In this document: positions 1,628 through 62,400 of the stretch, one piece after another
How the letters are laid out: every line of letters begins with the position of its first letter
Position numbering within the stretch: the stretch's first letter is position 1
Assembly: GCA_036399695.1 (NCBI GenBank)
Contig: DASWMP010000345.1
Span: 1,478 to 65,477, forward strand
DNA: 64,000 bases
DNA from: Thermoanaerobaculia bacterium
GTDB taxonomy: Bacteria; Acidobacteriota; Thermoanaerobaculia; Gp7-AA8
Direction of reading: 5' to 3'
Program-made: the position numbers and the translations under genes
Notes under the pieces: model-generated
Database searches by the model: none
The model's input: only the letters and a program-made list of their open reading frames with translations
What the model was told of the DNA's origin: nothing

Positions 1628-2980
1628 TCAGTTCGCGCGCCGCGCTGTCCCCGCGCGTGGTGCAACGTCACCACGACTGCCGGCGACGGTCACGCGCGCG
1701 AGCAGCCACTCGAGCTGCATCCGCAGCGCCTGCGGCGAGTACCTGGCCCAGAGCCAGTAGAAGCTGTCGCCCTGCAGCGTGCGCACGCCATCGGGCAGCG
1801 AGAGGCCATGTCCTGCACCGGGGATGACCGCAATCTTGAAGTCCTTGTTCCCCGCCTCGGCCAGGTAGCGCTCCATCCTGGCCACGTTCTCCTCGGGCGG
1901 CGTGACGTAATCATCCCCGCCGTAGAGCGCTAGAAACGGCGTGCGGATCTTCTTCAGGTCGGGCGCCGGATCGTACTGATTGAGGCGCACCCAGAGGATG
2001 TCCTCGTACTGCTCGTTCTCCGGCAGGTCGACGAAGCTCGCCCATCTCGACGCCTTCGCACGCGCAACCGAGGCGCGCAACTCATCCCATCCGTGGCCGG
2101 TGTAGGCGAAGCGGGTGACGAGCGTCATGTGCGCGGCCGCCGCGGCGATCTCCTCGGCAGTGAACCGCAGCTCCGACCGCCGCATCCTCGTCGTGGCCAC
2201 GTGGATCTGCTGGTCCATCACGCTCTCGGCCGGACCGACGGTGGTGATGATGAACGCGAGCGGGACTTTCGTGCGAGTGGCGACGATGGCCGCCACCCAG
2301 CCGCCCGCGCTGTTGCCGCGGAGGCCGATCTGCGCGCGATCGATGTCTTTGCGCGCGGCGAGATGGTCGAGCATCGCCAGGACGTCCGCGGCGTGGTCGT
2401 GCAGACTCGCGGCATCGTGATCGCCGCCCGATTCACCGGCGCCACGCTTGTCGTAGATCAGGCTGGCCACGCCACGCTCGGCGAAGATGCGCGCGAGGCC
2501 GCGCAGCCCGGCACGCGTCGACTTGCCGCGCCCGTGGATCCAGACGACCACCGGATGCGGGCCCGGATTGGCCGGCGTGACGAGCGTCGCCGCGATCGTA
2601 CCGACGCGGACCTCCTCCCACTTCAGCGGAACCACGACCGGCGCGAGCGCCCGCTTGAGGTGCACGCGCGTCGGCGGCGTCCCTTTGCCGGAGGTACCGA
2701 CGAGCTCACCGGCGACGACGTCATGCATCAGCGACGTCGCGCCGTCGAAGTCGAAGGTGACGGTGGCGCCGTTCTGCGTCACCGCGACGACGCGCTCGTT
2801 GTTCAGCCAGTCGGCGTTCTGTACGCGCGCCTTCAGCGCGTCGCCGTCGCGAAAGAACTCGAATCGCACGAGCCGCACCGACGCATCGCGCACCAGGGCC
2901 CCTTCCCACCACCCCTCGACCGGCTCCTGCGCCGTGGCGGTCGTCGACAGGAACAGGAGGAGCAGCAGCAGGCGTCTCAC
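1628..2980 (-). CDS. Secreted alpha/beta-hydrolase (S9 peptidase / dienelactone-hydrolase-like)
   Basis: GTG start giving signal peptide '(M)RRLLLLLLFLSTTATAQEP'. Nucleophile elbow 'GNSAGG' and 'VVWIHGRG'. C-terminal 'GAGHGL'. Confidence 0.55.
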   Translation of the reverse strand: MRRLLLLLLFLSTTATAQEPVEGWWEGALVRDASVRLVRFEFFRDGDALKARVQNADWLNNERVVAVTQNGATVTFDFDGATSLMHDVVAGELVGTSGKGTPPTRVHLKRALAPVVVPLKWEEVRVGTIAATLVTPANPGPHPVVVWIHGRGKSTRAGLRGLARIFAERGVASLIYDKRGAGESGGDHDAASLHDHAADVLAMLDHLAARKDIDRAQIGLRGNSAGGWVAAIVATRTKVPLAFIITTVGPAESVMDQQIHVATTRMRRSELRFTAEEIAAAAAHMTLVTRFAYTGHGWDELRASVARAKASRWASFVDLPENEQYEDILWVRLNQYDPAPDLKKIRTPFLALYGGDDYVTPPEENVARMERYLAEAGNKDFKIAVIPGAGHGLSLPDGVRTLQGDSFYWLWARYSPQALRMQLEWLLARVTVAGSRGDVAPRAGTARRAN

Positions 2981-3181
2981 GAGGAGCCATGCTACCGCTT
3001 CGCGCGCAGGACGCCACCGCCGAGCGGCACCAGCTCGTCCGCGCCGGCGGTCGATTGAGGCCGTGATCGGGAATGAACCCGGGTATGGAAATCGGAATAT
3101 CACCCTCCCGCCAGATCGAAATGGGCGGCCCCCGAAATCCCTTTTCATTGGTGGCGTCCAATACAAATAACGAGGTCCGGC

Positions 3182-13956: not shown

Positions 13957-15597
13957 ATGACCGTCGCCGGCGTGGAGTCAGAAGCAACGTTCGCGGGACT
14001 GGTGGAGCGCCTGGTCGCCGATGCGGACCGTCGCGAGCAGTTGACGGAGCTGTTGCGGGAGGAGCATCCGCTCTACGAGCAGCGTGGCACCGCTACGACC
14101 GTCCGGATGCGCGGCTGGATTCTGCTCGCGCTGGCGCGCACGGGCGTGCCGGACGAGGCGCTGCTCTTCGTGCTCGAGGAGCTGGAGAGCGGCGTCGATC
14201 CGTATCTCGTGGCCGCGGCGGCGCGCGCACTTCGCAGCTATCCGCGGCCGAAAGCGGCGTTCGCGCCGCTCCTGCTGCGCGCGCTCGGGAACATCCGCTT
14301 TCGCGATGAACGGGTGTCGCTGGACCGGTATGGCGCATATGCCGTCGGGCCGGTCGGCACGACGCCTGTGCGTGAATTGCTGGCGACGCTGGCGTGGCTC
14401 GGCCCGCACGCGCGGGCGGTGCGTGCCGATCTGGAGTTGCTGCGGCAGGATCGCGGTCTCGCACGCAAGTACGGCGATGACCTGGACGCCGCGCTGGCGG
14501 CCATCCGCGGCGGTGACGATGCGGCAGAGCATGGCGCCGATTCCTGTTGCGAGCTGCCCGGCGGCATTCAGGGATCGCGCTGGTGGCCGTTCGCCAATCG
14601 TGCCGGCGCCGAGGACGTGGAGGGCGTCGGCTTCGAGGATCACGACGGGACGGCCAGCACATTCAAGGAGCTGTTCCGCGGTCGCGTCTCGATCGTGGTG
14701 TTCTTCTACACGCGCTGCGACAACCCGCTCAAGTGCTCGCTGACGGTCTCGAAGCTCGCGCGGGTGCAGCAACTGCTGGAGGAGCGCGGGCTGGCCGGCC
14801 GGATCGCGACGGCCGCGATCACGTACGATCCGGCCTTCGACGTGCCGGAGCGGCTGCGCGTGTACGGGAAGGACCGGCGGGTGCGCATGGATGGCGACCA
14901 CCGGATGCTCCGGGCGGTCGACGGCCTCGACACGCTGCGCCGCTACTTCGGCCTCGGCGTGAACTTCATCGAGTCGCTCGTGAACCGGCATCGCATCGAG
15001 GCGTACGTTCTCGACGCCGAGGGGCGCATCGCCGCGTCGTTCGAACGGCTGCAGTGGGATGAAGAAGCGTTGGTGGATCGCAGCGTCGCCGTCATGGAGG
15101 AGCAGCGCGAGACGGAACCGGAGGCGCCGGCGAAGGCTGGCTCCACGAAACGGAAAGTCGCGTTCCCGATGCTCGCAACAATGGCCAGCATCGCCCTGGC
15201 GTTCTTCCCGAAGTGTCCGGTGTGCTGGGCCGCGTATCTGAGCCTGTTCGGCGTCGCGGGGTTGAACCAGATTCCGTATTCGCCCTGGCTCCAACCCGCC
15301 ATCGCGGCGCTGGTGCTCGTGAACGTCGCCACGGTGTGGCTGCGCGGACGCGCGACGCGGCGGCTGACGGGGTTCTATCTCGTGACTGCCGGCGCGCTGG
15401 TGACGCTTTCGAGCGTGACGCTCGGGTGGAAGAGCGTCTCGGCGATCGGGATCATCCTGACGATGGCGGGTTCGCTCGTGAGCGCGCGACGGCTACAAAG
15501 CGGATCGGCGCCGTCGCGTGTCTCTCGCGCGCGTGGGTCAGGCGGCCTGAGTGAGGAGCTGCTGCCAAGGATCGCTGATCCCAAGATCCCGGGCTAG
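13957..15597 (+). CDS. Fusion protein: HEAT-like N-terminus, SCO1/SenC-like thioredoxin-fold domain, and a C-terminal multi-TM domain with a CPVC motif
   Basis: ATG 5 nt after the previous stop. SCO-like 'FEDHDGTASTFKELFRGRVSIVVFFYTRCDNPLKCSLT...ITYDPAFDVPERLRVYGK'. TM region 'ALAFFPKCPVCWAAYLSLFGVAG'. The longer track ORF from 13348 runs in an alternate frame across the previous gene. Confidence 0.5.
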   Translation: MTVAGVESEATFAGLVERLVADADRREQLTELLREEHPLYEQRGTATTVRMRGWILLALARTGVPDEALLFVLEELESGVDPYLVAAAARALRSYPRPKAAFAPLLLRALGNIRFRDERVSLDRYGAYAVGPVGTTPVRELLATLAWLGPHARAVRADLELLRQDRGLARKYGDDLDAALAAIRGGDDAAEHGADSCCELPGGIQGSRWWPFANRAGAEDVEGVGFEDHDGTASTFKELFRGRVSIVVFFYTRCDNPLKCSLTVSKLARVQQLLEERGLAGRIATAAITYDPAFDVPERLRVYGKDRRVRMDGDHRMLRAVDGLDTLRRYFGLGVNFIESLVNRHRIEAYVLDAEGRIAASFERLQWDEEALVDRSVAVMEEQRETEPEAPAKAGSTKRKVAFPMLATMASIALAFFPKCPVCWAAYLSLFGVAGLNQIPYSPWLQPAIAALVLVNVATVWLRGRATRRLTGFYLVTAGALVTLSSVTLGWKSVSAIGIILTMAGSLVSARRLQSGSAPSRVSRARGSGGLSEELLPRIADPKIPG

Positions 15598-16077
15598 CGA
15601 CGGTATGTCGATCGACGGCGGCCTGTGGCGCCCGAGGAGCGCCTTCAGGCGTAACGACGGAACAACGATCACGTCGGGGACGACCGTAGGATTCGCCGCT
15701 GCATCGCTCGTGAACAAGACGAAGACCAGGTAATGGTGCTTCCGTGCGCTGAATGGCTGAAGAAGCCACTTCGTCGTCCCGACCAGTGTCTGCACGTCCA
15801 GAGTCAGCGCCTTTCCCGGCGACTGCAGGACGGTGATGTCCACGCTGCCGGGATGCGCGTTCGTCAAACTCGCTTCGCCGCCCAATCGATGCAGCACGGA
15901 CAGTACGTGAAAACGAGCCGCAAGCTCGAGATGCCTGCCGCGGACGACCCATGCCGGCCGTGGCATCGTCAACGGCGGGACGTAGAGAGGCTCACCCCAG
16001 GCGGAGGAGTCAGCGAGATCGGCCAGCACCTCAGCTTCAATCTCGTCATCGCTGAGCTTACGTTTGCGTGAACTCAT
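15538..16077 (-). CDS. Hypothetical protein (179 aa), translationally coupled to the upstream BrnT-like gene
   Basis: Start 'MSSRKRKLSDDEIEAE' overlaps the upstream stop in an ATGA arrangement. No recognisable RHH or HTH. Its 3' end overlaps the convergent 13957-15597 gene by about 60 nt. Confidence 0.4.
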   Translation of the reverse strand: MSSRKRKLSDDEIEAEVLADLADSSAWGEPLYVPPLTMPRPAWVVRGRHLELAARFHVLSVLHRLGGEASLTNAHPGSVDITVLQSPGKALTLDVQTLVGTTKWLLQPFSARKHHYLVFVLFTSDAAANPTVVPDVIVVPSLRLKALLGRHRPPSIDIPSLARDLGISDPWQQLLTQAA

Positions 16078-16325
16078 AGATCCCAGCCGGTGATGAAACG
16101 TAAGTCGCGGCTACCTTCCACCACCACGATCAACTCGAGCGGCCTGCCGGCATCGGTACGCCCTCTCACGCGGTAGCGGTCGTCTGAACGTTTGTTCCGG
16201 ATGACGATGATGCCGTTCGCCATGACTTCCATGACATCGTACCTGCTGATCCCGTGCGCAGCCAGCTTCGCATCGTTGAAGGTGATGTCATAGTCGTCTG
16301 GATCGAAGCGTTCCCATCGGACCAC
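16074..16325 (-). CDS. BrnT-like (DUF497) ribonuclease toxin family protein
   Basis: 'FDPDDYDITFNDAKLAAHGISRYDVMEVM...RYRVRGRTDAGRPLELIVVVEGSRDLRFITGWD' matches the DUF497 pattern (F-WD, AK-HG-S-E, RfiaiG, G-llvvv, RIISAR). Confidence 0.5.
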   Translation of the reverse strand: MVRWERFDPDDYDITFNDAKLAAHGISRYDVMEVMANGIIVIRNKRSDDRYRVRGRTDAGRPLELIVVVEGSRDLRFITGWDL

Positions 16326-16401: not shown

Positions 16402-18138
16402 TTACACGGTCGGGCGGGTGATCGGGACGCGCGGTGGGGGTGGTTCGATCACGCCTTCGAGCAGCTTCGCGTTGATCGTGGCGCCTTCGCCGTCCTGGCG
16501 CAGGGCGCCCTGGTTCGTGACCGGGGCCAGGCGTTTCGTGGCGCGCTGTTCGGCGAGGATCGCCTCCAGGCGGGGGCGGACGGCGATCGATTCGGCGGTC
16601 TCCTGGCCGGGCCAGGCCAGATTCACCACCTCCAACTGATCCTCGCTGAGCTTGTACTGCTCGTACTGGTCGCGGACGCCGGCGTACTTCGTCTGGATCT
16701 GGTTGATGTTGGGGTTCGTGATGTTCGGGTAGGCGACGACTTCCTGGTCGTAGTGCACGTACTTCCACATGACGCCGTCGATCTCGACGACGATCGCTTC
16801 CACCTGGTTGGGGGCATCGACGTTCCGCCACTGGCGCTGGCCGGTGACCTGGCTGAGGCCCTGGGCCACGTCGTCGATGGTCATGAAGTAGACGGCCTGG
16901 CCCGGCTCGAGGTGCGCTTCGCCGCGGACGACGGGGGCGAGATCGCGGCCGACGAGGCGGCGCGTCTCGCCGTGAGTTTTCACCAGCTCGCGGGCCGTTT
17001 CTTCGGCATCGATGCCGGCCAGCCCGAGGAGCGTGGGGAGGAGGTCGGCGTGGGAGGTGAGGCCGTCGACCGTGCGCGCCGAATCCGTGACCGGCTTGCC
17101 GGTGATGATCAGCGGCACGTGGATCGTCTCCTCGTACGCCTGGTACCACTTCTGATGCATGCCGCCGTGGGCGCCGAGCATCTCGCCGTGATCGGAGGTG
17201 AAGACGACGATCGTGTCATCGGCGAAGCGGGAACGCATCAGCCGGTCGTAAACCATCGAGACGTGGTTCTCCGCCTCGACCTGCAGGTAGTAATAGAACT
17301 GCCGGTAGAGGTCGACCGTCGGCTGCGGGAAGAACATCTGCCCGTAGGTGTCGACATAGCTCTGCTGCGCGGTGGGCTTCGTCGAGAGGTTCTCGTGCTG
17401 CGTGGGCGGCGGCGGGATCGGCGGGACGTCCGCGTCCGTCGGATAGGGCAGGCCCCACGACTTCCAGATCAGGCCGAAGAAGACGATGTCGTGCGGGTTG
17501 ACGTACGAGTTGACGAGCAGCCACGGCTCCTCCGTCTCTTCGCTGTCGAGCCGGTCGAGCAGGGCCAGCGCTTCGCGGGCGTAGAGGGGGTCGCGCGTCC
17601 AGCCGCAGTTCGCCTGGTTGCTGCCGTGCGGCTCGGGGCCGATCCAGCCGTCGAAGCCGAACTTGTCGAGCCGGTTGGCCTGCTTGTAGAGGTTCGTGTT
17701 CTCGACGATGGGCGTGCCGTCCGCGGTGTTGGAGATCAGCGAGTTGTGCGTCCCGGGGATCTCGATGTCCTCGTGCGAGATGTGCCACTTGCCGCGGTAG
17801 TGCGTGCGGTAGCCGGCCGCGCGGAAGTAATCGCCGAGGGTCGGCACCATGTCGGGATCGAGCCAGTACATCCCGGGGTCGTACGTCGTCTTCCCGATCC
17901 CGTCCGTCTGGCTGACGCCATGCAGCGACGGATACTGGCCGGTGAAGATGGACGTGCGGCTCGGCGCACACGCCGCCGACTGCACGTAGTGCCGCGGAAA
18001 ATCGACGCCGTTCTTGCGTAAGGTGGTCTGGGCGCGGAGGTTCCGCTCCATCCAGCCCCGCAGCTCGGGCCCGTCGTAAACGGTGGGATAGCGCAGCTCG
18101 TCGACGAGGAAGAGAAGGATGTTCGGACGTTTTGCCAT
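16402..18138 (-). CDS. Arylsulfatase (formylglycine-dependent sulfatase)
   Basis: Start 'MAKRPNILLFLVDELRYP'. Signature 'SAACAPSRTSIFTGQYPSLHGV' (C-x-P-x-R). The long N-terminal ORF extension consists of translated repeats. Confidence 0.8.
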   Translation of the reverse strand: MAKRPNILLFLVDELRYPTVYDGPELRGWMERNLRAQTTLRKNGVDFPRHYVQSAACAPSRTSIFTGQYPSLHGVSQTDGIGKTTYDPGMYWLDPDMVPTLGDYFRAAGYRTHYRGKWHISHEDIEIPGTHNSLISNTADGTPIVENTNLYKQANRLDKFGFDGWIGPEPHGSNQANCGWTRDPLYAREALALLDRLDSEETEEPWLLVNSYVNPHDIVFFGLIWKSWGLPYPTDADVPPIPPPPTQHENLSTKPTAQQSYVDTYGQMFFPQPTVDLYRQFYYYLQVEAENHVSMVYDRLMRSRFADDTIVVFTSDHGEMLGAHGGMHQKWYQAYEETIHVPLIITGKPVTDSARTVDGLTSHADLLPTLLGLAGIDAEETARELVKTHGETRRLVGRDLAPVVRGEAHLEPGQAVYFMTIDDVAQGLSQVTGQRQWRNVDAPNQVEAIVVEIDGVMWKYVHYDQEVVAYPNITNPNINQIQTKYAGVRDQYEQYKLSEDQLEVVNLAWPGQETAESIAVRPRLEAILAEQRATKRLAPVTNQGALRQDGEGATINAKLLEGVIEPPPPRVPITRPTV

Positions 18139-18189
18139 ATGCCTCGGAGAGGCGCGAAACGGACATTTCCCTACCCGTCTTCGGTCGCG

Positions 18190-18620
18190 GTGCACGAGGA
18201 GGGCTCCGGGACCGATACGAGATCCGTTTCGAGTGATTCGAATGACTCGTTGAGTGATGGGAAGTCGGTTTCGAGTGACCGGAAAGCGGTGCCGAGTGAT
18301 GCGGGATCGACTCACAGTGATGCGCATTCGATTCGGCGTGATCCGGAATCGGCTCTGAGCGATCGGAAATCGGTTTCGAGTGTTCGGAAATCGATTTGGA
18401 GTGTTCGAGTCTCGTCCTGGAGACACTCGAAATCGGTTTTGAGTGTTCGAGTCTGGTCGGGAGGACACCGAAATTCGGTTTTGAGTGATCGATTCTCGGT
18501 TTGAGGACACTCGCAACACTAAAAACCGATTTCGGATCACTCAAAACGATCCAGTCTCGTCGGGAGGACACTGGAGATCGGTTTTTGCGTGTTTGTGTCT
18601 CGTCTGGAGGCACCGCGCAC
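18190..18620. repeat. AT-rich degenerate tandem array of roughly 21-bp units (GAAATCGGTTTCGAGTGATCG-like), becoming about 42-bp units distally
   Basis: At least 12 consecutive units such as gaagtcggtttcgagtgaccg / gaaatcggtttcgagtgttcg / gaaatcgatttggagtgttcg. GC content is markedly lower than in the flanks. Sits immediately upstream of the sulfatase start. Confidence 0.6.
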
Positions 18621-18757
18621 GTCCTCAGTCGAGGACAAGAGACTCGCGAAGTCTCGCGCGAAGCCTCGCGGGCCGTCTTCAAACGCGATAAAGCGCCGGC
18701 AAGCTGCCGGCGCTCCAACGCTCCGCGTGCACGTCCGACGCTGAGACAGCGGTGCGG

Positions 18758-19591
18758 TTACGTGAGCTCGTCCCGCTTCCGCTCGGTCGCCACGGGAACG
18801 ACAGGTGATCCGCTGGTATCGGCAGCGTCATCGGCATCGTCCTTCCCTTTGCGGATTCGCAGCATCTTGCCGGCGGCCTTCGAAACCTTCTTCCGGGCAC
18901 CGTCGGCCTTGTCGCCTTCGATGACCTCGCGCTTGATGACTTCCTTTGAGAGCGCTTCGCGAAGCTCCGGCAGCTCGATCTTGGCGTCCGAGACGCGCCG
19001 TAGCTCTCGCCGCACGGTTTCGAGCACGGCGTCGCTGAGGACGACGGCGGCGAGATAGAACTTGTTCGTCGCCTGCAGGTGATCGTGATAGGCGTACAGC
19101 CCCGACTTCAGCATGCTCTCGCGCGTGAGCAGGAAGAGGCTTTCGAGGTCGGCGGCGTTCTTCGGGTTCAGCGCCAGCAGATCGATATCCAGCACCAGTT
19201 CCGCGTCGATCGGCTTGGCAAAGATGACGCGGAAGACTCTCCACAGGTTCCCGTTCGTCAGCGCGACCCATTCGACGCCCTGATTGGCGGCATAGTCGAC
19301 GGCCTGCTTCGCATGACCATCCTTCAGTTCGAGGCCGATCGCTTTCACCTCGATCAACATCTGGAACTTGCCGTCGATACGCGTGGCGAGGTCGCAATAG
19401 GTGCCGCGAATTGCCAGCTCGCGCGTGACTTCACTGTACTTGTCGTAGCCGTAGATCTCGGCCAGCATGTCCGTCACGATCATCGACGTGTCGGATTCAT
19501 TGACATCGCGCGACTTGGCCGCCGCAAGGATCGGGGCGAACCGCTTCAAACCAGACGACAGCCGTTCAGCAACTTTCGCAGGGATGGCCAT
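18758..19591 (-). CDS. PD-(D/E)xK nuclease-fold protein (HsdR N-terminal-domain-like) with a K/E-rich tail
   Basis: RBS AGGAGAGAAGGT before the ATG. 'TYCDLATRIDGKFQMLIEVKA' matches D...(D/E)xK. About 60% GC against about 68% in the flanks. Confidence 0.45.
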   Translation of the reverse strand: MAIPAKVAERLSSGLKRFAPILAAAKSRDVNESDTSMIVTDMLAEIYGYDKYSEVTRELAIRGTYCDLATRIDGKFQMLIEVKAIGLELKDGHAKQAVDYAANQGVEWVALTNGNLWRVFRVIFAKPIDAELVLDIDLLALNPKNAADLESLFLLTRESMLKSGLYAYHDHLQATNKFYLAAVVLSDAVLETVRRELRRVSDAKIELPELREALSKEVIKREVIEGDKADGARKKVSKAAGKMLRIRKGKDDADDAADTSGSPVVPVATERKRDELT

Positions 19592-29416: not shown

Positions 29417-29636
29417 GGGCTCGGGGCCCGGGGCTCGGGGCTCGGTGGGGGTCAGACGCGAGGTCAAGGGGACGGCACAGCAGACAGCGCCCTTCACCTC
29501 GAGCCTGGTACCTGGCCCAGGGCTCGGGCCCCGGGGCCAGGGGCGTCAGACGTAAGGTTAAGAGGACTGCACCGAAGGCGGCCCCTCAACCTTGGGTCTG
29601 ACCCCCACCGGGCCCTGAGCCCCGAGCCCCGAGCCC
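29417..29636. mobile_element. MITE-like element of family B (GC-rich GGGCTCGGGGC termini, internal direct repeat)
   Basis: Terminal inverted repeats gggctcggggcccggggctcggggctcggtgggggtcagac / gggtctgacccccaccgggccctgagccccgagccccgagccc. Internal duplicated block gtcagacgYRaggtYaagRgga. Confidence 0.55.
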
Positions 29637-34003: not shown

Positions 34004-34190
34004 GGAGGGCCCGGGGCTCGGGGCTCGGGGCCCGGTGGCATTGACTTAGAGGTTTGCCTCATGTGGGACAGACACTCCTGTCTGTCCGGCCCACCCCCGA
34101 GGTCCATTCCTCCAGACAAGCGGCCGTTCGGGTGCACGGGACAGACAAGAGTGTCTGTCCCACATCTAAAGTCAACGCCATCGGGGCGCT
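34004..34190. mobile_element. MITE-like element of family B, copy 2 (GC-rich end plus GGGACAGACACTC palindromes)
   Basis: Near-identical to the reverse complement of 43112-43306. Imperfect TIRs ttgacttagaggtttgcctcatgtgggacagacactc / gagtgtctgtcccacatctaaagtcaa. Internal gggacagacactcctgtctgtcc palindrome. Confidence 0.7.
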
Positions 34191-35051: not shown

Positions 35052-37207
35052 GCAGCGTCGACGGCAAGGCGGTCGGCACTCCGCGGCGCGTTCCGGTGAT
35101 CGCGCTGATCGTGCTGGTGCTGGCGGTCGGCGTGGGAAGCGCGTTCGTGCGGCTGGCGGACCGCCGCAGCGTGGAGAACCGGCGGCGCGTGGCCTCGGAG
35201 GCGGCGGCGGCGGCGACGGTGCGCATCGAGAGACAGATCGACGCCGCCTTTGCCGCCGCGTCGATCGTGGCCGCGCTGCTGCGTGCGCGCGGCGATGCGG
35301 ACGTGAACACCATCGCCGCAGAGGCCGTGCAGCGGGGAGGCGTCGCCGGCATCGAAGTCGTCGCCGCCACGGCCGTCCCGGCGCCGCCCGGGGCGAGCAC
35401 GGTCCTGATGATGTCGGAGTCGCGGCAGTTGCGAGCCTGCGTGCGCGTGGCGCCGGCGGACCCCCGCTTCGCCGTGGCCATCCTCGACCTGCCGGAGCTG
35501 CTGGCGCGGAGCGGCGTCGACGAGCTGCCGTCGGACGGATACGACTACCAGCTCGTGGCCTCCGGCGCCGCCGCCTCGGGGCGCGCTTTCGTGGTGGCGC
35601 GGTCCTCACCGCTCGAGCTCGCGGAGCCGGTGCGCTCCTCCTTCGCGGTCCCGCAGGGGCGCTGGACGCTCGACGTGGCGCGGCGCGCCGGCTGGCGGAT
35701 GGCGGGAGAGCGGACGCGGGAAATCGCCATCGTCCTGATCGGCAGCCTCCTCTTCGCCCTGTTCGTCTACGACCTGCTGCGGCGGCCGTACGTGCTGGAG
35801 CGGGAAGTCGAGCTGCGCACGCGCAAGATCGTGGAGACGAATCGCCGCCTCACGGCGGAGATCGAGCAGCGGCAGCGTGCCGAGGAGCAGGTCGTCCACG
35901 AGGCCACGCACGACCGGCTGACCGCGCTGCCGAACCGCGTTTACCTGCGCGACCGGATCACGCGCGCCCTCGACCGGGCCCGGTCGGCCAACGCCGTCGG
36001 CTTCGGCGTGCTCGTGATCGACATCGACCGCTTCACCGACGTGAACGACGGGCTCGGACACGACATCGGGGACGAGCTGCTGACCCTCGCGGCGCGGCGC
36101 CTCCAGAGCTGCATCCGCTTCGGCGACGTCCTGGCGCGCGTCGGCGGTGACGAGTTCGCGATCCTCTCGCTGGCCATCGATCCGGCGGAGATCACCGGCG
36201 TGGCCCGCCGGGCGCACGAGGCGCTGGAAGTGCCGTTCGAGGTGGGCGGGCACCGCGTGCAGATGTCGGGCAGCATCGGCATCGCTCTGAGCGCGAGCGG
36301 CTACACCGTCGCCGACGAGCTGCTGCGCGACGCCTATCTGGCCGTGCATCGGGCGCGGCAGCAGGGGGGCGCGTCGCACGTCCTGTTCGACCCGAAGATG
36401 CACGAGCAGGCCGCGGCGGCCCAGCAGATCGAGACGGAGCTGCGCGCCGCGCTCGCGGGCAACGAGCTGCGGCCGTACTTTCAGCCGATCGTCTCCCTCA
36501 CGACCGGGCGCATCACCGGCTTCGAGGCCCTCGTGCGCTGGATCAGCCCGAAGCGGGGCTTCGTCTCCCCCGCCGCGTTCATTCCGGTGGCGGTGTCGAG
36601 CGGCCTGATCATCCCGCTGGACCAGTGGATGATGCGCGAAGCAGCGCGGCAGGTGCACGAGTGGAACAGCCGCCTGCAGCTCGAGCCGCCCCTGACGATC
36701 AGCGTGAACGTCTCCGGCCGCCGGCTCGGGCAGCGCGAGCTGATCGAGGACGTGGCCCGCACGCTCCGCGAGACCGGCATCGACACCCGCTCCCTGCGCC
36801 TGGAGATCACGGAGGGGGAGATGATGGAGCGGCCGGACGAGGTGCTGGCGATCCTGACGGAGCTGAAGCGGATGAACATCACGCTCCTGGTCGACGACTT
36901 CGGCACCGGCTATTCGTCGCTGAGCTACCTGCACAGCTTCCCGATCGACGTCGTCAAGATCGACCAGTCGTTCGTCCGCCGGATGCTGGAGAGCGGCAAG
37001 GACGAGGAGATCGTCCGCGCCGTCATCAACCTGAGCGCCACGCTCGGCCTGCGGGTGATCGCCGAAGGCATCGAGACCGCCGGCCACCTCGCGCGCCTGC
37101 GCGAGCTCGGCTGCGACTACGGCCAGGGCTACCTCTTCTCGAAGCCGGTCGACGCCGCCGCGATCGAAGCCCTGCTGGCGACCAATCCGTCGTGGATTGA
37201 GGATTGA
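35049..37207 (+). CDS. Membrane sensor diguanylate cyclase/phosphodiesterase (GGDEF-EAL)
   Basis: Two TM helices bracketing a periplasmic domain. GGDEF 'RVGGDEFAIL'. EAL 'FEALVRW', 'DDFGTGYSSLSYL'. The final codons (SWIED*) are encoded by the heptamer hairpin. Confidence 0.85.
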
Positions 37208-37324
37208 GGATTGAGGATTGAGGATTGAGAATTGAGGATTGAGGATTGAGGATGGCTGCGCTCCAGGCACCCGGGTCGCCCGAGCGCAGCCAATCCTCAG
37301 TTCTCAATCCTCAATCCTCAATCC
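37194..37324. repeat. Hairpin of family C with heptamer-repeat arms: (GGATTGA)x8 ... (TCAATCC)x4
   Basis: ggattgaggattgaggattgaggattgagaattgaggattgaggattgagg ... cctcagttctcaatcctcaatcctcaatcc; it overlaps the stop codon of the GGDEF-EAL gene. Confidence 0.7.
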
Positions 37325-37359: not shown

Positions 37360-39234
37360 ATGGCGCGCCGTACGAGTGACTACGCTGCCACCGGGAAGCC
37401 GCAGCACTCGTTGCGGGAGCGGTTTGGCGCGTTGCGGAACCTGCCGCCGTTTCTGCGGCTGATCTGGCAGACCAGCCGCTCGCTCACGGTCACGAATGCA
37501 GTGCTGCGGCTGCTGCGGGCGTTTCTGCCGGTGGCGCTGCTCTTCGTCGGGAAGCTGATCATCGACGAGGTGATCCGCCTGGCGTCAGCGGGCGGCGCTC
37601 CAGCCACCCCGCTGGAGTGGTGGGCCTCCGGGCGTGTCGACCGGCTGGCGATGCTGATCGGGCTGGAGCTGGGCATCGCCATACTCTCGGACGTGATCGG
37701 GCGCATCGTCTCGCTGGTGGACTCGCTGCTCTCGGAGCGCTTCACGAACGAGACGAGCATCCGCCTGATGGAGCATGCGGCCACGCTCGACCTCGAGGAC
37801 TTCGAGGACAGCGAGCTGCAGGACCAGCTCGAGCGGGCACGCCGCCAGACGATGGGGCGCAGCTCGCTGCTCACACAACTGCTGGCGCAGGCGCAGGACG
37901 CCGTCACGATCATCGCCTTCGCGGCCGGCCTCATCGCCTACGCTCCCTGGCTGATCCTTCTCCTCGGCATTGCTCTCATCCCCGCCTTCCTCGGCGAGGC
38001 GCACTTCAACGCCGCCAGCTACACGCTCAACTACACGCGCACCCCGGAGCGGCGCGAGCTCGATTACGTCCGCCAGACCGGCGCCGGCGTCGAGACGGCG
38101 AAGGAAGTGAAGATCTTCGGCCTCAACGCCTTCCTCCTCGAGCGCTACCGCATGCTCGCCGATGCTTTCTATCGGGCGAACAAGTCGCTCTCCGTGCGGC
38201 GCGCCTTCTGGGGGAGCGTGCTGACGGCAATCGGCACGCTCGGCTACTACGTGGCGTACGGCTACCTGGCCTGGGGCACGCTGAGCGGCGACTTCACGAT
38301 CGGCGACCTGACGTTCCTGGCCGGCTCGTTCCGCAGGCTGCGCACGCTGCTCGAAGGGCTGCTCACCGGCTTCTCGCAGATGGCCGGGCAGGCGCTGTAT
38401 CTCGACGACCTGTTCTCGTTCTTCCTCATCGAGCCGGAGATCACCTCCCGGCCGGACGCGCTCCCCTTCCCTCGGCCGATGCAGGAGGGGCTGCGCTTCG
38501 AGAACGTCGGCTTCCGCTATCCCGGCGCGGAGCGGTGGGCGGTGCGGAACCTCACGTTTACGCTGCGGGCCGGCGAGGTCGTCGCGCTCGTGGGGGAGAA
38601 CGGCGCGGGGAAGACGACGCTCGTGAAGCTGCTGGCGCGGCTCTACGATCCGGACGAAGGACGGGTGCTGGTCGACGGCCGCGATCTGCGCGAGTACGAC
38701 CTGGAGTCGCTGCGCTCGAACATCGGCGTCATCTTCCAGGACTTCGTGCGCTATCACCTGACGGCGGCGGAGAACATCGCCGTGGGGCGGATCGAAGCGG
38801 CCGGGGACCGGGCGCGGATCGAGACGGCGGCGCGGCGCAGCCTGGCGGACGAGGTGATCCTCCGTCTGCCGAAGCAGTACGACCAGCCGCTCGGGAAGCG
38901 CTTCCGCAAGGGGGTTGAGCTGTCGGGCGGCGAGTGGCAGAAGATCGCCATCGCCCGGGCCTACATGCGGGACGCGCAGCTCCTGATTCTGGACGAGCCG
39001 ACGGCGGCGCTGGATGCGCGGGCGGAGTTCGAGGTGTTCCAGCGCTTCCGTGAGCTGAGCTCCGGCAGGACGACGGTGCTGATCTCGCACCGGTTCTCGA
39101 GCGTGCGCATGGCCGATCGCATTCTCGTGCTGGCGGACGGGCAACTCGAGGCTGCCGGGACGCACGAGGAGCTGCTGGCGGCAGGGGGGCGGTATGCGGA
39201 GTTGTTTGAACTGCAGGCGGAGGGGTATCGGTGA
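37360..39234 (+). CDS. ABC transporter, fused permease/ATPase (MsbA-like exporter family)
   Basis: Six-TM N-terminal domain. Walker A 'GENGAGKTT'. ABC signature 'LSGGEWQKIAIARA'. Walker B 'LLILDEPTAALD'. Confidence 0.85.
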   Translation: MARRTSDYAATGKPQHSLRERFGALRNLPPFLRLIWQTSRSLTVTNAVLRLLRAFLPVALLFVGKLIIDEVIRLASAGGAPATPLEWWASGRVDRLAMLIGLELGIAILSDVIGRIVSLVDSLLSERFTNETSIRLMEHAATLDLEDFEDSELQDQLERARRQTMGRSSLLTQLLAQAQDAVTIIAFAAGLIAYAPWLILLLGIALIPAFLGEAHFNAASYTLNYTRTPERRELDYVRQTGAGVETAKEVKIFGLNAFLLERYRMLADAFYRANKSLSVRRAFWGSVLTAIGTLGYYVAYGYLAWGTLSGDFTIGDLTFLAGSFRRLRTLLEGLLTGFSQMAGQALYLDDLFSFFLIEPEITSRPDALPFPRPMQEGLRFENVGFRYPGAERWAVRNLTFTLRAGEVVALVGENGAGKTTLVKLLARLYDPDEGRVLVDGRDLREYDLESLRSNIGVIFQDFVRYHLTAAENIAVGRIEAAGDRARIETAARRSLADEVILRLPKQYDQPLGKRFRKGVELSGGEWQKIAIARAYMRDAQLLILDEPTAALDARAEFEVFQRFRELSSGRTTVLISHRFSSVRMADRILVLADGQLEAAGTHEELLAAGGRYAELFELQAEGYR

Positions 39235-39244
39235 CGTGGGGGAG

Positions 39245-39351
39245 TGCTGAATCGATGTTCAATGCTGAATGCTGAATGTTGAATGCTGAACAAGGCGACG
39301 GCCACTCACGAGCACTTCAACATTCAACATTCAGCATTGAACATTGACGCT
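39245..39351. repeat. Hairpin of family C with (TGCTGAATG)-type repeat arms
   Basis: gctgaatcgatgttcaatgctgaatgctgaatgttgaatgctgaa ... ttcaacattcaacattcagcattgaacattga. Confidence 0.65.
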
Positions 39352-39735
39352 GATCTCACCCCATTCGGTCGATCGCTCGCGGAGTCTTTGCTTTGCCTCC
39401 CCGAGTCTTCGATTGAAGTGACCCCAATCATTCAGTCGTTCGCGGAGTCTTCGCTTTGACTCCCGGAGTCTTCGATTGATATCGCCCATGTCATTCGCTC
39501 GTTCGCGGAGTCTTTGCTTTGCCTCCCCGAGTCTTCGATTGATATCGGCCCATATCAATCGTTCGTTCGCGGAGTCATTGCTTTGACTCGCGGAGTCTTC
39601 AATTGATATCGCCCCATATCAATCGTTCGCTCGCGGAGTCTTCGCTTTGACTCCCGGAGTCTTCGATTGATATCGGCCCATATCATTCGGTCGTTCGCGG
39701 AGTCTTTGCTTTGACTCCCGGAGTCTTCGAGTGAG
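39352..39735. repeat. Tandem repeat, about 6 copies of a roughly 63-bp unit
   Basis: Units such as cccatatcaatcgttcgttcgcggagtcattgctttgactcgcggagtcttcaattgatatcgg repeat head-to-tail. Each unit carries an internal cggagtcttcg duplication. The whole unit is conserved, with no unique spacers. Confidence 0.7.
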
Positions 39736-39814
39736 CTCGGCCCTGTCAATCGCATGCTCGCCGAGGCCAGTGATGGACTCGCCGGGGCCGCGGTTGACGT
39801 CGGTGGGGCCTGGC

Positions 39815-40474
39815 TCAGCGTCGGGTGGACAGCACGCTCAGCTCGGCCACGAGGCGAATGAGGCGGCGGCCTTCTTCGTCGGCCTGTTCGTAGGCGCGGC
39901 AGAGGGTTTCGAGCTCGTCTTCGTCCTCGTAGGCGGCGACGGTAAAGCCGTCGTCGGGCTGGGAGGCGGTGGACGTCACGCTGCGGGTCCAGAGGCCGTC
40001 GTTGAGGTGATAGCTGGTGAAGCCGCGGGTGCGGGCGCGGCGGGCGCCGCCGAGGTCCGCGAGCATCGCTGCGCCGGCCACGTCGGCGGCGTTGCCGCTG
40101 GCGTTCGAACGCTGGGCCGCCAGGATCTTGCCGACGAACGTGGCCATCATCTCCTGCAGGCGGAGGTGAGAATCGCCGACGGCATGGAGGAAATGCACGC
40201 CGGTATGAGAGACGAGGCTCTTTCCGTCGCCGCCAGGATCGCGGACGACCGTGGAGCGGACGACCTCACAGGCAAACTCGACGTCCTCTCCCTGCCAGCG
40301 GTAGACGAGAAGAAAAGCGTCTCCCAGCTCCACGCGGCCATAATGTTCCAGGAACGCGCCCGCCACCCCGATGTCGAGGATGAGCGCGTTCTGGCCGTTC
40401 ATGGTGGCCAGGATCGGTTTCGCCAGTTTGAGCCGCTGAAACTCTCGGCGGTCGTCATAGCCCATCGGACGCAT
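39815..40474 (-). CDS. PilZ-domain protein with a conserved C-terminal domain of unknown function (paralog 1)
   Basis: PilZ motifs 'RREFQRL' and 'DIGVAGA'. C-terminal 'GFTVAAYEDEDELETLCRAYEQADEEGRRLIRLVAELSV' is shared with the gene at 42461-43090. Confidence 0.55.
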   Translation of the reverse strand: MRPMGYDDRREFQRLKLAKPILATMNGQNALILDIGVAGAFLEHYGRVELGDAFLLVYRWQGEDVEFACEVVRSTVVRDPGGDGKSLVSHTGVHFLHAVGDSHLRLQEMMATFVGKILAAQRSNASGNAADVAGAAMLADLGGARRARTRGFTSYHLNDGLWTRSVTSTASQPDDGFTVAAYEDEDELETLCRAYEQADEEGRRLIRLVAELSVLSTRR

Positions 40475-45133: not shown

Positions 45134-45251
45134 TCGATTCCGATCCCGTGGCGATGGTCAGTGGTCGGTGGTCAGTTGCTGGCGCTCCGTAGCCCAGGAA
45201 GTGGCCACCGAACGCGTTGCTAACCGACCACCGGCCACTGACCACCGCCGG

Positions 45252-45632: not shown

Positions 45633-45649
45633 GGGGCTCCTTTTTTTGA

Positions 45650-45733
45650 GTTGGCAGTTGGCAGTTGGCGGTTGGCAGTGTCGGAGCCAGAGTCTTTCTA
45701 CTGCCAACCGCCTACTGCCAACCGCCAACTAGC
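45650..45733. repeat. Hairpin of family C with (GTTGGCR)-repeat arms
   Basis: gttggcagttggcagttggcggttggcag ... ctgccaaccgcctactgccaaccgccaact; it contains the TAG stop of mtgA. Confidence 0.7.
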
Positions 45734-47573: not shown

Positions 47574-47682
47574 GGGAACAGGGAACGATGGGACCTATGG
47601 GACAACCTATAGGACCTATAGGACCTATGAGCAGGCTGCCTGACTCCCATAGGTCCCATCTCCCATCTGTCCCATTTGTCCA
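47574..47682. repeat. Hairpin of family C with (ATGGGACCT)-type repeat arms
   Basis: gatgggacctatgggacaacctataggacctataggacctatgag ... ctcccataggtcccatctcccatctgtcccatttgtcc. A related copy lies inside lhr at 63318-63390. Confidence 0.65.
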
Positions 47683-54700: not shown

Positions 54701-54847
54701 CAGTTGGCGGTTGGCGGTACGCGCGCTTCGCGCGCTCGCGGTTGGCGGTGGCTGAAACCGGGGCCAGCGGCGCTCTCCCGTCGTTGGGGGTTTCGGCTAC
54801 CGCCAACCGCCATCGCGCAAAGCGCGCGTACCGCCAACCGCCAACTG
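54701..54847. repeat. Long palindrome (about 147 bp) of family C with (GTTGGCG) arms
   Basis: cagttggcggttggcggtacgcgcgcttcgcgcgctcgcggttggcggtggctgaaacc ... ggtttcggctaccgccaaccgccatcgcgcaaagcgcgcgtaccgccaaccgccaactg. Confidence 0.7.
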
Positions 54848-58051: not shown

Positions 58052-58148
58052 TGTTTTTGGTTTTGGTTTTTGGTTGTTGGTGCTTCGCTATGCGAGGGCT
58101 CGGCGCGCGGCGCAGCACCAAAAACCCAAAACCAAAAACCAACAACTA
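58052..58148. repeat. Hairpin of family C with (TTTTGGT) arms
   Basis: gctgtttttggttttggtttttggttgttggtgcttcgc ... gcgcagcaccaaaaacccaaaaccaaaaaccaacaac. Confidence 0.65.
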
Positions 58149-59452: not shown

Positions 59453-62400
59453 CTACCCCGCCCTCAATTGATACCCCATTGCCGTGGGCACGAAACCCTC
59501 TTCCGCCAGAAATGGGGCCAGCGGGCTTCTGGCCACCGGTTCATCGTTCACGTCCACGATCAGCAGCGCCCGGCGGTGCCGCTCTCGCACGAGCGACGCC
59601 AGCGCCTTCGCCACCTCTTTCGCCACGCAGGAGCGCAGCGGCTCGTCTTCCGGCAGGAACAGCGACACCTGCTTCTCACCGCGGCTTACGTACGCGGACA
59701 TCATCCCGTTGACCAGCACCACGTGCGTGCCGACCGTGCGCGAGAGCCTCTCGGCCGTCTCCGGCCACTTGACGATCGTGCCGTAGGGATTCGCCGGGTC
59801 CGTCGAGGCCAGCATCACCGTCTCCGGCGTATCCGGCTCGTCGCGGAAACCGCGCAGCAGGTCGATGGCGCCGGCGGAGGTGAACTGCGTCGCGCCGAGG
59901 CCGGCGACGAAGTAGCCGCGGCGGATGCGTCCCGCTTCCTCCAGCGCCTTGAGGATCGGATAGACGGCGCTGAAGCCGCCGGCGATCCCTTCCGCGCCCG
60001 GCGCTTCGCGCGTCACGAGCCCGTAGCGATTGAGGAGCTGCTGCGCGACAGCGGTGGCGTGCTGCGTCTCGTTCGCCGCCGCCGTGCCGACCAGCGACCA
60101 GCGTCCCTGCGTCGACGCCGGGGCTACGCGGCGCGAGCGGAAGCCGGTCGCGCGCGGCTGCTTCGGCCGCGTGAAAGCGCGCAGCGCGTGGAACGTGTCG
60201 TTCGTGACCACGCCCTTCCAGACCAGGCTCCAGAGCGCGTCGACCAGCTCCGCCGGGAACCCGCCGACGGCGAGCTGCATCTGCGCGAAGAACGTGGCGC
60301 CCGAGGTGCGCAGATGCTCGACGATCTTCGTCTCCAGCTCCGTGAGGCCGGTTGGGCGGTTGGCGGTTGGGCGGTTGGGCGGAGGAGTGCCGACGGCGCC
60401 GCTGTTTGCCTCTGCCCAACCGCCCAACTGCCCAACCGCCCAACTGCTCCGATGCAGCATCGGCAGGTGATCCGTCAGGTACACGGCGATCCGGCCATCG
60501 CGCTCGCCCAGCGGCTCGACGCCGACCCAGACGATCTCGCCGGCAGTGCTGAGGGTGTCGAGGTCCGACGGCTTGTAGTCCTCGAGGCGCGCGTCGAGGA
60601 TCTCCGTCTCGAAGATCGAGGCCGCCATCGGATAGCCCTGCAGCGTCTCGATCGTCTCGAGCAGCGCGTCGAGGCCGCGACGCTTGCGGATGGCGTGCTG
60701 CCAGTGCGTGAACAGCCGCGCCAGCGCCGGCTGGTCGACCGGCTCCGCTTCCTTGCGCAGCTTGGCCAGCGCGCGGCGGCGGATGATGCGCAGCACGTCG
60801 GACTCGACCCACTCCCGCTGCGTGCCGCCCGGGCGGAAGTCCCCTTCGATGAGGCGTCCGCGCTCGACGAACTTCGCCAGCGTCGTGTTCACCACCGCCA
60901 CGCCGAGGCCGTAGCGGCCCGCCAGCTCGGCCGGCGTGAAGGGGCCGTGGCTGCGCGCGTAGCGGAGCACGAGATCCCCCGTGGCGTCGGCCACCGGCTG
61001 GAGGTAGCGCTCGGCGATGCCCTGCGGAAGCGGGACGCCGAGCGCATCGCGATAGCGGGACGCGTCCTCGATGGCGATGAAGCGTTTGTCGCGGGCGATC
61101 GTCACCTCGATGACGCGCCGCGCCTTCGTCAGCTCCGCGATCGACGGCGGCGCGTCGATGAGCGACCGCGCCGCGATCTCATCGACGCTGAGATCGCCGA
61201 GACGCAACAGCAGGTCGTGAATGCCGTCCGTGCTCTTCGCCTTGCGGTTCTCCACGAGATGCTGCAGCTCGAGCTCCGTCTGCTCGATCGAATCGGGATC
61301 GAGCAGCTCGCGCAGCTCCGGCTCGCCGAGGAGCTCGCGCAACTGGTTCTGGTCGATCGCCAGCGCCTGCGCGCGGCGTTCGGCCAGCGGCGCGTCGCCG
61401 TCGTAGAGGAAGTTCGCGACGTAGCGGAACAGCACCGCCGAGGCGAACGGCGACGGCTTGAGCGTGTCGGCCGTGACGACGCGGATCTGCCGCTCCCGGA
61501 TGCGCCGCATCATGTCCACCAGCGCCGGCACGTCGAACACGTCGCGCAGCACCTCGCGGTACGTCTCGAGAATCATCGGAAACGACCCGAAGCGCGACGC
61601 CACCTGCAGCAGGTCGTACGCCCGTTTGCGCTGCTGCCAGAGCGGCGTGCGGCCCTGCGGGCGGCGGCGCGGCAGCAGCAGCGCGCGGGCCGCCGCTTCG
61701 CGGAACTTCGCCGCGAACATCGACGTCGCGCCGAGCTGGCGCACCACGAGCTGCTCCACCTCGTCCGCATCCGGGATCATCAGCTCCGCGGGGGGCGGCT
61801 TCTCGGTCTCGGGGAAACGGATGATGAAGCCGTCGTCCGCCCACATCGTCTCCACGTCGATGGCCAGCTCGTTCCGCACCTTCGCCGCGACGGCCATGGC
61901 CCACGGCGCGTGAATGCGCCCGCCGAACGGCGAGAGCACGCAGACGCGCCAGTCCCCCAGCTCGTCCGTGACCCGCTCGACCACGACCGTGCGGTCATCC
62001 GGAATCGCGCCGGTGGCCTCGTGCTGATCGTCGAGGTACTGCAGCAGGTTCTGCGCGGCCAGGCGGTCGAGGTCGTGCTTCGCCGTCAGCGTGCGGATCG
62101 CATCCGCCGGCTTTGCGGCGCGCAGCTCGCGCACGAGCCGCCCGATCTCGAAGCCGAACGGCACAGTGCGCTCCGCGGAGTCGGCCTTCCAGAACGGCAT
62201 CTTGCCCGGTTGCCCCGGCGCCGGCGTGACGACGACGCGGTCGTGCGTGATCTCTTCGATGCGCCAGGTGGAGGCGCCGAGGACGAACGTCTCGCCGACC
62301 GAGGCCTCGAAGACCATTTCTTCGTCGAGCTCACCGACGCGCGCGCTGGACGTCTTCTCCGCCCCGGCCAGGAAGACGCCGTACAGCCCGCGGTCCGGGA

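Follow-up and report, generated by a model that had tools for sequence, protein, structure and literature searches.

A probable lineage-specific minisatellite upstream of a sulfatase gene in a Thermoanaerobaculia bacterium

The window analyzed here is a 64,000-nt stretch of the metagenome-assembled genome of an uncultured, soil-type Thermoanaerobaculia bacterium (Acidobacteriota; positions 1,478 to 65,477 of contig DASWMP010000345.1, assembly GCA_036399695.1), and the element under study is an array of 21-bp tandem repeats that occupies most of a 619-nt spacer (18139-18757) between two minus-strand genes, upstream of the gene for a sulfatase. The array is probably a lineage-specific intergenic minisatellite, or variable-number tandem repeat (VNTR), that evolves largely neutrally, turns over units in its distal part and lies upstream of the compact control region of the sulfatase gene. 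It consists of tandem units within the 10-100-bp range of minisatellites, resides in non-coding DNA and is polymorphic between strains, the latter in the one pair that was compared. In its non-coding intergenic location, units of tens of base pairs, strain-variable unit number and decaying units with a 42-bp higher-order structure, the array resembles bacterial minisatellites such as the mycobacterial MIRU-VNTR loci, and in its apparent derivation from a shorter, heptamer-scale period it resembles the satellites of Burkholderia and Chloroflexus (PMC6749651). Unlike the MIRU-type families, which are dispersed over many loci, the array has no second copy in 244 kb, and it further differs from minisatellites in the position-specific constraint on its unit and in the possession of an inverted junction.

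The array extends from about 18210 to about 18610 (in window coordinates) and comprises approximately 19 equivalents of a 21-bp unit with the consensus GAGTGATCGGAAATCGGTTTC, in which a 9-nt part (GAGTGATCG) is followed by the near-palindrome GAAATCGRTTTC. The first-pass annotation, made from the letters of the window alone, had proposed an AT-rich array of head-to-tail 21-bp copies at 18190-18620 that change to 42-bp units farther from the gene. The existence of a period-21 array at this place is beyond chance: the 17-mer GAAATCGGTTTCGAGTG (at most 3 mismatches) has 9 matches in the window, all of them within the array, compared with 0.22 expected, and none of 100 shuffled sequences reached 9. 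The location given was right, although the true limits are narrower; the composition is GC-depleted but AT-rich only in relative terms (52.6% GC in the array and 49% in its distal half vs. 66.8% in the window and 66% in the sulfatase gene); and the units are direct and tandem but not purely head-to-tail, an inverted segment being present at a 70-bp junction. Tandem Repeats Finder (TRF) reports period 21 at 18252-18301, 18340-18393 and 18363-18407, and the distal change to 42-bp units is recovered as period 42 at 18387-18513 (3 copies, score 152); likewise, a repeat search finds 7 copies spaced by 21 bp, beginning from 18210, and a spacing of 42 bp farther out, and it also lists copies 21, 21, 21, 21, 42 and 21 nt apart. 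The autocorrelation of the array is 0.46 at lag 21 and 0.51 at lag 42, over a background of about 0.24, and also reveals a minor 7-nt sub-period (0.34), with smaller peaks at 7, 14, 28 and 35.

The part of the array nearest to the sulfatase gene (18210..18398, plus strand) is formed by nine 21-bp A-type units (GAGTGATCGGAAATCGGTTTC) in strict phase and without insertions or deletions. The core motif GAGTG[A/T]T (at most 1 mismatch) recurs in exact 21-bp phase at 18231, 18252, 18273, 18294, 18315, 18336, 18357, 18378 and 18399, and then at 18441 and 18483, in 42-bp steps, and at 18587, whereas inverted cores are found at 18422, 18506, 18515 and 18536. The adjacent distal block (18399..18504, plus strand), the one to which TRF assigns period 42, consists of two 42-bp higher-order units and one further unit; the 42-bp unit is an A-type unit with a 21-bp insert (GAGTGTTCGAGTCTCGTCCTG joined to GAGACACTCGAAATCGGTTTT) that ends in the inverted core ACACTC. 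The distal block is overlapped by the 70-bp palindromic junction (18478..18547, no strand assigned), in which a forward unit faces 1.5 inverted units; its arms, 18478-18502 and 18523-18547, are 80% complementary and would form a hairpin of about 20 bp, with no U-tail, on either strand. The far edge of the array, delimited by repeat families and core positions, contains remnant units (TCCAGTCTCGTCGGGAGGACAC... and GCGTGTTTGTGTCTCGTC...; 18548..18610, plus strand). As a separate observation, 8 GATC sites were counted by eye in the approximately 410 nt from 18210 to 18620, compared with about 1.6 expected; the repeat core supplies them (GTGATCG, GGATCA), and a Dam-type methylase, were the organism to possess one, would find its targets densely packed in the array.

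The array is non-coding. Three of the six reading frames are open across it, but the respective open reading frames (ORFs) have a flat GC content over the three codon positions (0.51-0.59), as opposed to about 0.65, 0.40 and 0.80-0.92 in the sulfatase and neighboring genes; the three ORFs that cross the array have no match in Pfam, and the substitutions between strains show no 3-nt phase. An extension of the sulfatase N-terminus from a GTG at 18540 was considered and rejected as a repeat artefact, given that the homologues all span about 575 aa from the MAKRPN start and that the codon-position GC is flat. The earlier view of these ORFs as spurious is accordingly upheld.

The phyletic distribution of the array is narrow. 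In three assemblies (ENA ERZ27253094, JGI 3300034139 and Logan SRR10954982), 12-22 kb are 99.995-100% identical to the window, and the array does not differ at all; these assemblies represent the same strain, possibly from related samples, and are uninformative with respect to copy-number variation. The only other occurrence is in contig L023 (JGI 3300063151, a different sample), which encodes a 97%-identical homologue of the 277-aa protein whose gene borders the array on its distal side, and which ends within the array at the equivalent of window position 18240. The array is absent upstream of six orthologues of the sulfatase (81-89% aa identity) on other Thermoanaerobaculia or Acidobacteriota contigs, where the upstream spacers are 190, 123, 37, 209, 81 and 75 nt long, and it is absent downstream of four homologues of the 277-aa protein (89-93% aa identity), three of which, at 93%, 89% and 89%, are followed by other genes after 38-180 nt. 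A link of the array to the 277-aa gene was likewise considered and dropped, these homologues lacking the array. Judging from these comparisons, the array is confined to a narrow lineage; it postdates the divergence from the 89% relatives and predates that of the window strain and L023.

All comparisons of evolutionary rate are between the window strain and L023, a single strain pair. In the array, 40 of 376 sites differ (10.6%), close to the 23 of 143 four-fold degenerate sites of the 277-aa gene (16%; p = 0.10 for the array vs. these sites) and more than in two adjacent ordinary spacers (5.7% and 6.7%; p = 0.016). The divergence of the array is thus close to neutral overall. Pairwise identity among units is 52-86%. 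Within the proximal block, orthologous units of the two strains are 87% identical, compared with 66% for paralogous units both within and across strains; homogenisation by concerted evolution is negligible there, and this block, which is older and more diverged than the rest of the array, drifts at a nearly neutral rate while its units have stayed in place in both strains. Gain and loss of units took place in the distal block (18399..18504), which reads A,A,B42,B42 in the window and A,A,A,A,A,B42 in L023; in the latter, a 42-bp A-A pair has recently been duplicated almost without change, and a 1-nt deletion breaks the phase in one unit (spacing 41). The two arrays differ by gain or loss on the 42-bp scale and, on balance, by about one 21-bp unit. 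The comparison of repeat number between strains that the first-pass annotation had suggested therefore does reveal a difference in unit number and composition, but the behavior is that of a slowly turning-over VNTR and not that of a phase-variation switch. In addition, the Logan contigs L003 (at its start) and L006 (at its end) overlap by 28 nt within the array (18491-18518), where no exact repeat of at least 31 nt was reported; strain polymorphism, a drop in coverage and graph branching are candidate causes for the breaks in these contigs and in L023.

The origin of the array may be sought in the general propensity of this genome to expand repeats. Under this scenario, a short, partly palindromic sequence with a weak 7-nt sub-period (GAAATCGRTTTC) would have been amplified into 21-bp units and later into 42-bp higher-order units, with slipped-strand mispairing or unequal recombination as the probable mechanism; intergenic tandem repeats are unusually abundant in this genome. 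Prokaryotes typically harbor 0-3 satellites per Mb, and a few possess heptamer-derived satellites (PMC6749651); the repeat density of the window is far above this level. Given this density, local repeat expansion is the simplest origin of the 21-bp array, and the 7, 21 and 42 periodicity fits such an origin. Since other repeats in the window lie, for example, between convergent genes, tandem repeats here are not specific to promoters.

One of these other repeats is a 64-bp unit repeated six times (39369-39752; 86% matches, TRF score 537) in a 580-nt gap between the convergent genes 37360-39234 (plus strand) and 39815-40474 (minus strand). It is non-coding and not associated with a promoter, contains an internal 21-nt sub-repeat with the hairpin GGAGTC..GACTCC, and is adjoined by a hairpin of a different kind that recurs in the window. 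These hairpins with heptamer stems, at least 10 in number, all occupy short gaps between genes, for the most part genes of the same orientation (29417-29636, 37194-37324, 39261-39345, 45155-45247, 45649-45730, 47588-47681, 54703-54845, 58053-58146, 60349-60447 and 63313-63388, with half-sites near 34007, 43114 and 56103). Each is made up of 3-9 tandem units of 7-9 nt, a GC-rich center of 20-60 nt and the same number of reverse-complement units, and the heptamer differs from site to site (GGATTGA, AATGCTG, TGGTCAG, AGTTGGC, GTTTTTG, CGGTTGGG and others). The same architecture is seen at about 420-545 of contig L011, which comes from another Thermoanaerobaculia sample and carries one of the orthologous sulfatases. 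These hairpins might be terminator-like; they also recall the heptamer repeats (STRR) of cyanobacteria. One of them, a nested double hairpin (GGGCTCG/CCGAGCC, 29417-29636), lies immediately upstream of a cobalamin riboswitch (RF00174, 29201-29378, minus strand; 74.5 bits, E = 1.6e-16), which is the sole match to Rfam at the gathering threshold in the whole window.

The sulfatase gene itself (16402..18138, minus strand; 578 aa; PF00884, E = 1.4e-42) starts at MAKRPN, in agreement with its homologues of about 575 aa, and is preceded by a short region shared by all seven orthologues, the one in the window included. This control region (18139..18176, minus strand) consists of GGGTAGGGAA (18176-18167), a variable stretch of 15 nt, CTCTCC (18151-18146), GAGGCAT and the ATG; across the family, the order is GGGTAGGGAA, N16-18, CTCYCC, N4-7 and ATG, with GGGTAGGGAA at about -38 to -29 and the C/T-rich CTCYCC at about -14 to -8, whereas the sequence between the two boxes and upstream of them is not conserved. 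The copies in the relatives are at L007:5960-6000, L008:5962-6000, L010:5964-6000, L011:~568-608, L029:~712-750 and L030:~2962-3000. No Shine-Dalgarno sequence is present upstream of the ATG in any of the seven orthologues. RNAalifold predicts for the conserved leader only a weak hairpin between a G-arm and a CU-arm, without covariation, and the window copy of the motif has no match in Rfam; the motif could be either a promoter for an alternative sigma factor, with an mRNA that has no leader or only a very short one, or a small hairpin within a leader. The earlier annotation had remarked on the lack of an obvious ribosome-binding site, which is borne out, and had tied it to regulation through the array, which is wrong, given that the start without such a site is a family trait that is found without the array too.

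About 70 nt separate the array, which lies at or beyond -72 and thus distal to the motif at -38 to -8, from the ATG. Because the orthologues have no array, it is dispensable for sulfatase expression, and the orthologue spacers of 37-123 nt would accommodate a start site of the sulfatase transcript only within about 40 nt of the ATG. Transcription probably starts downstream of the array, to judge from these alignments, and the array would then be upstream DNA that is not part of the mRNA. The proposal that the tract is a leader is accordingly disfavored, considering both the orthologue spacers (37-209 nt) and the conserved 40-nt motif directly before the ATG. Read-through from the 277-aa gene into the array is unlikely as well, because a terminator-like hairpin (18685..18721) intervenes.

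Several observations, however, weigh against a purely neutral minisatellite, in addition to the reliance of all rate estimates on two strains and the limited reach of the search for dispersed copies, which covered the 64-kb window and related loci. Conservation is uneven among the columns of the unit (chi-square p = 0.025): of 12 units, 9-11 agree in columns 1-7 (GAGTGAT), 10 (G) and 14-16 (TCG), but only 4-8 do so in the arms of the palindrome and in column 21. The core columns received 4 of the 22 substitutions between the strains, compared with 10.5 expected (p = 0.005), and the substitution rate is 5% in the 10-nt core (GAGTGAT + TCG) vs. 20% in the non-core columns. Conservation and substitution are anticorrelated over all columns (Spearman rho -0.64, permutation p = 0.0012), and the correlation persists (rho -0.50, permutation p ~0.01) when the circularity is removed by recomputing column conservation only from sites on which both strains agree. 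The junction, taken as 18472-18559, a region chosen post hoc, shows 1 difference in 88 nt compared with 39 in 290 nt in the remainder of the array (p = 3e-4); 75-nt stretches free of differences occur in coding sequence too, so that the conservation of the junction may reflect a recombination patch. Finally, the nine proximal units hold the exact 21-bp phase with no insertion or deletion. The constraint on the core, the conservation of the junction and the exact phase are not predicted by pure junk DNA.

The alternative that draws on these observations, which can be entertained only tentatively, is that the array is a series of phased DNA sites for a sequence-specific protein, be it an activator, a repressor or an architectural protein, that recognizes the core TCG-N5-GAGTGAT; the cores would recur at every second helical turn and form an inverted pair in the junction, some 400 bp would be coated, and the promoter of the sulfatase gene would be tuned or silenced. 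In favor of such sites are the slow evolution of the same columns that are conserved among paralogous units, the strict phase of nine consecutive units, the nearly invariant palindromic junction, and the position of the array, whose near edge is about 70 nt from the ATG and just upstream of the conserved promoter-like motif. The conserved columns are not the hairpin-forming part of the unit (GAAA..TTTC), and no compensatory changes are seen; any function therefore fits protein-on-DNA read-out better than RNA structure. Against this alternative, the sulfatase orthologues do without the array, isolated core sites, which would point to a regulon, are found neither elsewhere in the window nor in the relatives, no regulator gene is located nearby, the 1-nt deletion in L023 breaks the phase, overall divergence is near neutral, the statistics derive from 22 substitutions in one strain pair, and the junction may be a recombination mosaic. 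A secondary use of the 10-nt core (GAGTGAT...TCG), most plausibly in protein-DNA binding, may also overlie a minisatellite. A more specific variant, which appears doubtful, is that a recently evolved Thermoanaerobaculia array of about 19 phased TCG-N5-GAGTGAT sites, produced by heptamer-scale expansion and including an inverted pair that makes up the conserved 70-bp palindrome, nucleates a long nucleoprotein filament, perhaps, in view of the 8 GATC sites, a methylation-sensitive one, that tunes or silences the sulfatase gene. It is improbable that the tract acts as RNA, either as a long 5' leader with secondary structure in the sulfatase mRNA (minus strand) or as an independent non-coding repeat RNA that serves as a sponge for a protein or another RNA (plus strand). 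Both strands fold better than shuffled sequences (z = -4.9 and -3.8), which is trivial because an inverted repeat is present, the junction makes the hairpin described above, and GGA and GGAGG motifs occur on the plus strand. In scale, with about 19 motifs in 400 nt, the array is comparable to CsrB-type sponges. Yet a search of 18000-18900 against Rfam yielded, even at E <= 10, only noise such as miRNA models, a sigma-70-like promoter was detected on neither strand, the array is not followed by a U-tailed terminator, two terminator-like hairpins lie between the array and the upstream gene, and the orthologue spacers would place the start site within about 40 nt of the ATG. Furthermore, fast evolution is seen both in the stem columns (GAAA/TTTC) and in columns 9-11, which hold the GGA and include two of the variable columns, and the single substitution in the junction (18521) weakens a pair in the window strain. 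Two other ideas were weighed and set aside: the conserved columns match neither an extended Shine-Dalgarno or anti-Shine-Dalgarno sequence nor a CsrA-type GGA sponge, for which a promoter of its own, a terminator and an Rfam match all failed to appear.

Of the two remaining readings, the contingency locus and the iteron-like sites had been raised by the first-pass annotation. That the array is a contingency locus, in which frequent slippage switches sulfatase expression within populations, is very unlikely. Unit number and composition do differ between the two strains, and two independent short-read assemblies do break in the array (Logan L003 and L006; JGI L023), which lends this idea weak support; but diverged 21-bp units are a poor substrate for slippage and fall outside the short, near-identical units of 1-9 nt that characterize such loci, only two events on the 42-bp scale separate strains with 16% four-fold divergence, the proximal units are orthologous in place, the array is identical in three assemblies of the same strain, and it lies beyond about -70, outside both the -35/-10 spacer and the ORF. 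The TTTTGAT heptads bound by ToxR upstream of ctxAB are comparable to the extent that strain-variable repeats upstream of a promoter could set its strength (bioRxiv 10.1101/2021.05.14.444153); the unit in the window is three times longer and strongly diverged, and the array is far upstream of the core promoter, with no evidence of rapid switching. The least probable reading, already largely refuted, is that the array is a relic of an integrated plasmid, a phage or a REP/REPIN-like family, be it in the form of iterons, of a centromere-like site (sopC/parC type) or of the terminus of a mobile element. Some features do recall such elements: direct tandem repeats of 21 bp, regularly spaced over nine units, fall within the 17-22-bp, helical-turn spacing of the protein-read iterons of replication origins, the 70-bp junction with its 25-nt inverted arms looks REPIN- or MITE-like, and the flanking genes for 199-aa and 277-aa proteins have a GC content (~61%) below that of the genome. 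Nevertheless, no gene for Rep, a helicase loader, primase, ParA/B, parM/parR, integrase or transposase is found among the Pfam-annotated genes within about 10 kb, the DnaA-box consensus TTWTNCACA and the IHF consensus, for which a scan had been recommended, have 0 matches each in the 64-kb window, and the lowest GC content of 49% provides no truly AT-rich unwinding element. In the distant mode of blastn, there was no match among 72,556 plasmids and 50,697 phages, and IMG/VR viral contigs show no similarity. A blastn-short search of the masked window and related loci (244 kb in total) recovered no further copy of the unit or the junction beyond chance loci already picked by pattern, and pattern scans with GAAATCGRTTTBGAGTGWTCG (genome contigs) and AAATCGRTTTNGAGTGWTCG (metagenome and viral contigs) gave 4, 7 and 1 single-copy matches, in Kofleriaceae, Ignavibacteriaceae, Planctomycetaceae and others, which are chance-level numbers, none with a second copy; the collections scanned do not include the source locus and say little about the source genome. 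Iterons usually number 3-7 units, as compared with about 19 here, and the locus differs from replication origins also in the absence of an initiator gene and of a replicon context, its flanks being chromosomally syntenic. Partition sites and arrays of repressor heptads offer a resemblance only: sopC of the F plasmid consists of 12 units of 43 bp, each with an inverted repeat, parC of R1 is likewise repetitive, and the omega sites of inc18 are WATCACW heptads read by a repressor. These sites share with the window array contiguous units with a short core in both orientations and the unit size of 42 or 43 bp, and the minus-strand core GATCACT contains the ATCAC of the omega sites; but no parA/parB or omega-like gene is nearby, no plasmid similarity was found, and the cores in the window are 21 bp apart and not contiguous heptads. 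Similarly, REP, BIME and REPIN elements are imperfect intergenic palindromes in direct and inverted clusters, and the junction is reminiscent of a REPIN doublet, but there are no dispersed copies in 64 kb and no conserved end of the GTAG type. REP/REPIN families are associated with a RAYT transposase and number tens to hundreds of dispersed copies per genome; at an E. coli-like REP density of roughly one per 8 kb, several copies would be expected in the window. Iterons in the replication sense are not supported; binding sites in a looser sense are still a candidate, with a 10-nt core that evolves about 4 times slower than the rest of the unit.

The surroundings of the array are those of a variable patch on a chromosome. 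The gene distal to the array (18758..19591, minus strand) encodes the 277-aa HsdR_N_2-like (PD-(D/E)xK) protein, identified through Pfam, which belongs to a very large, highly conserved family that is widespread in Thermoanaerobaculia. Between this gene and the array, an inverted-repeat search detects a GC-rich hairpin followed by TTTATCGCGTTT on the minus strand (18685..18721), which is kept in L023 and is likely to be the intrinsic terminator of the 277-aa gene; the adjacent non-array spacer (18621..18684, minus strand; 93% identical to L023) contains small hairpins, among them GTCCTC..GAGGAC at 18625-18640 and 2.2 copies of a 12-bp unit at 18645-18670; another terminator-like site, also on the minus strand, is at 18643-18662. 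The outer flanks, with a gene of the GIDA family (TrmFO-like) and a DUF3467 gene on one side and a DUF3574 gene on the other, are syntenic with L007, the 89% relative that has no array, and the locus is therefore chromosomal, with a variable filling. Directly 3' of the sulfatase gene lies a gene pair (15538-16325, minus strand), in which an 83-aa DUF4258 protein gene overlaps that of a 179-aa protein without a Pfam match; the pair has a lower GC content (about 58%), is absent from the orthologous loci and looks like a toxin-antitoxin module.

As a probable minisatellite, the array would add to the known bacterial VNTRs; it could serve as a strain marker and may account for the breaks of short-read assemblies of this lineage at this locus. 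Two separate leads emerge from the same DNA, namely the conserved Shine-Dalgarno-less control motif of this sulfatase family (GGGTAGGGAA...CTCYCC) and the unusually high density of heptamer hairpins in Thermoanaerobaculia spacers. If the filament interpretation were true, this would be a regulatory array observed in the course of its emergence from a satellite, upstream of a promoter that otherwise stands alone. If the constraint on the core holds in more strains, the locus would represent a datable co-option of a satellite as a phased binding array, with the ancestral compact promoter still visible in the relatives.

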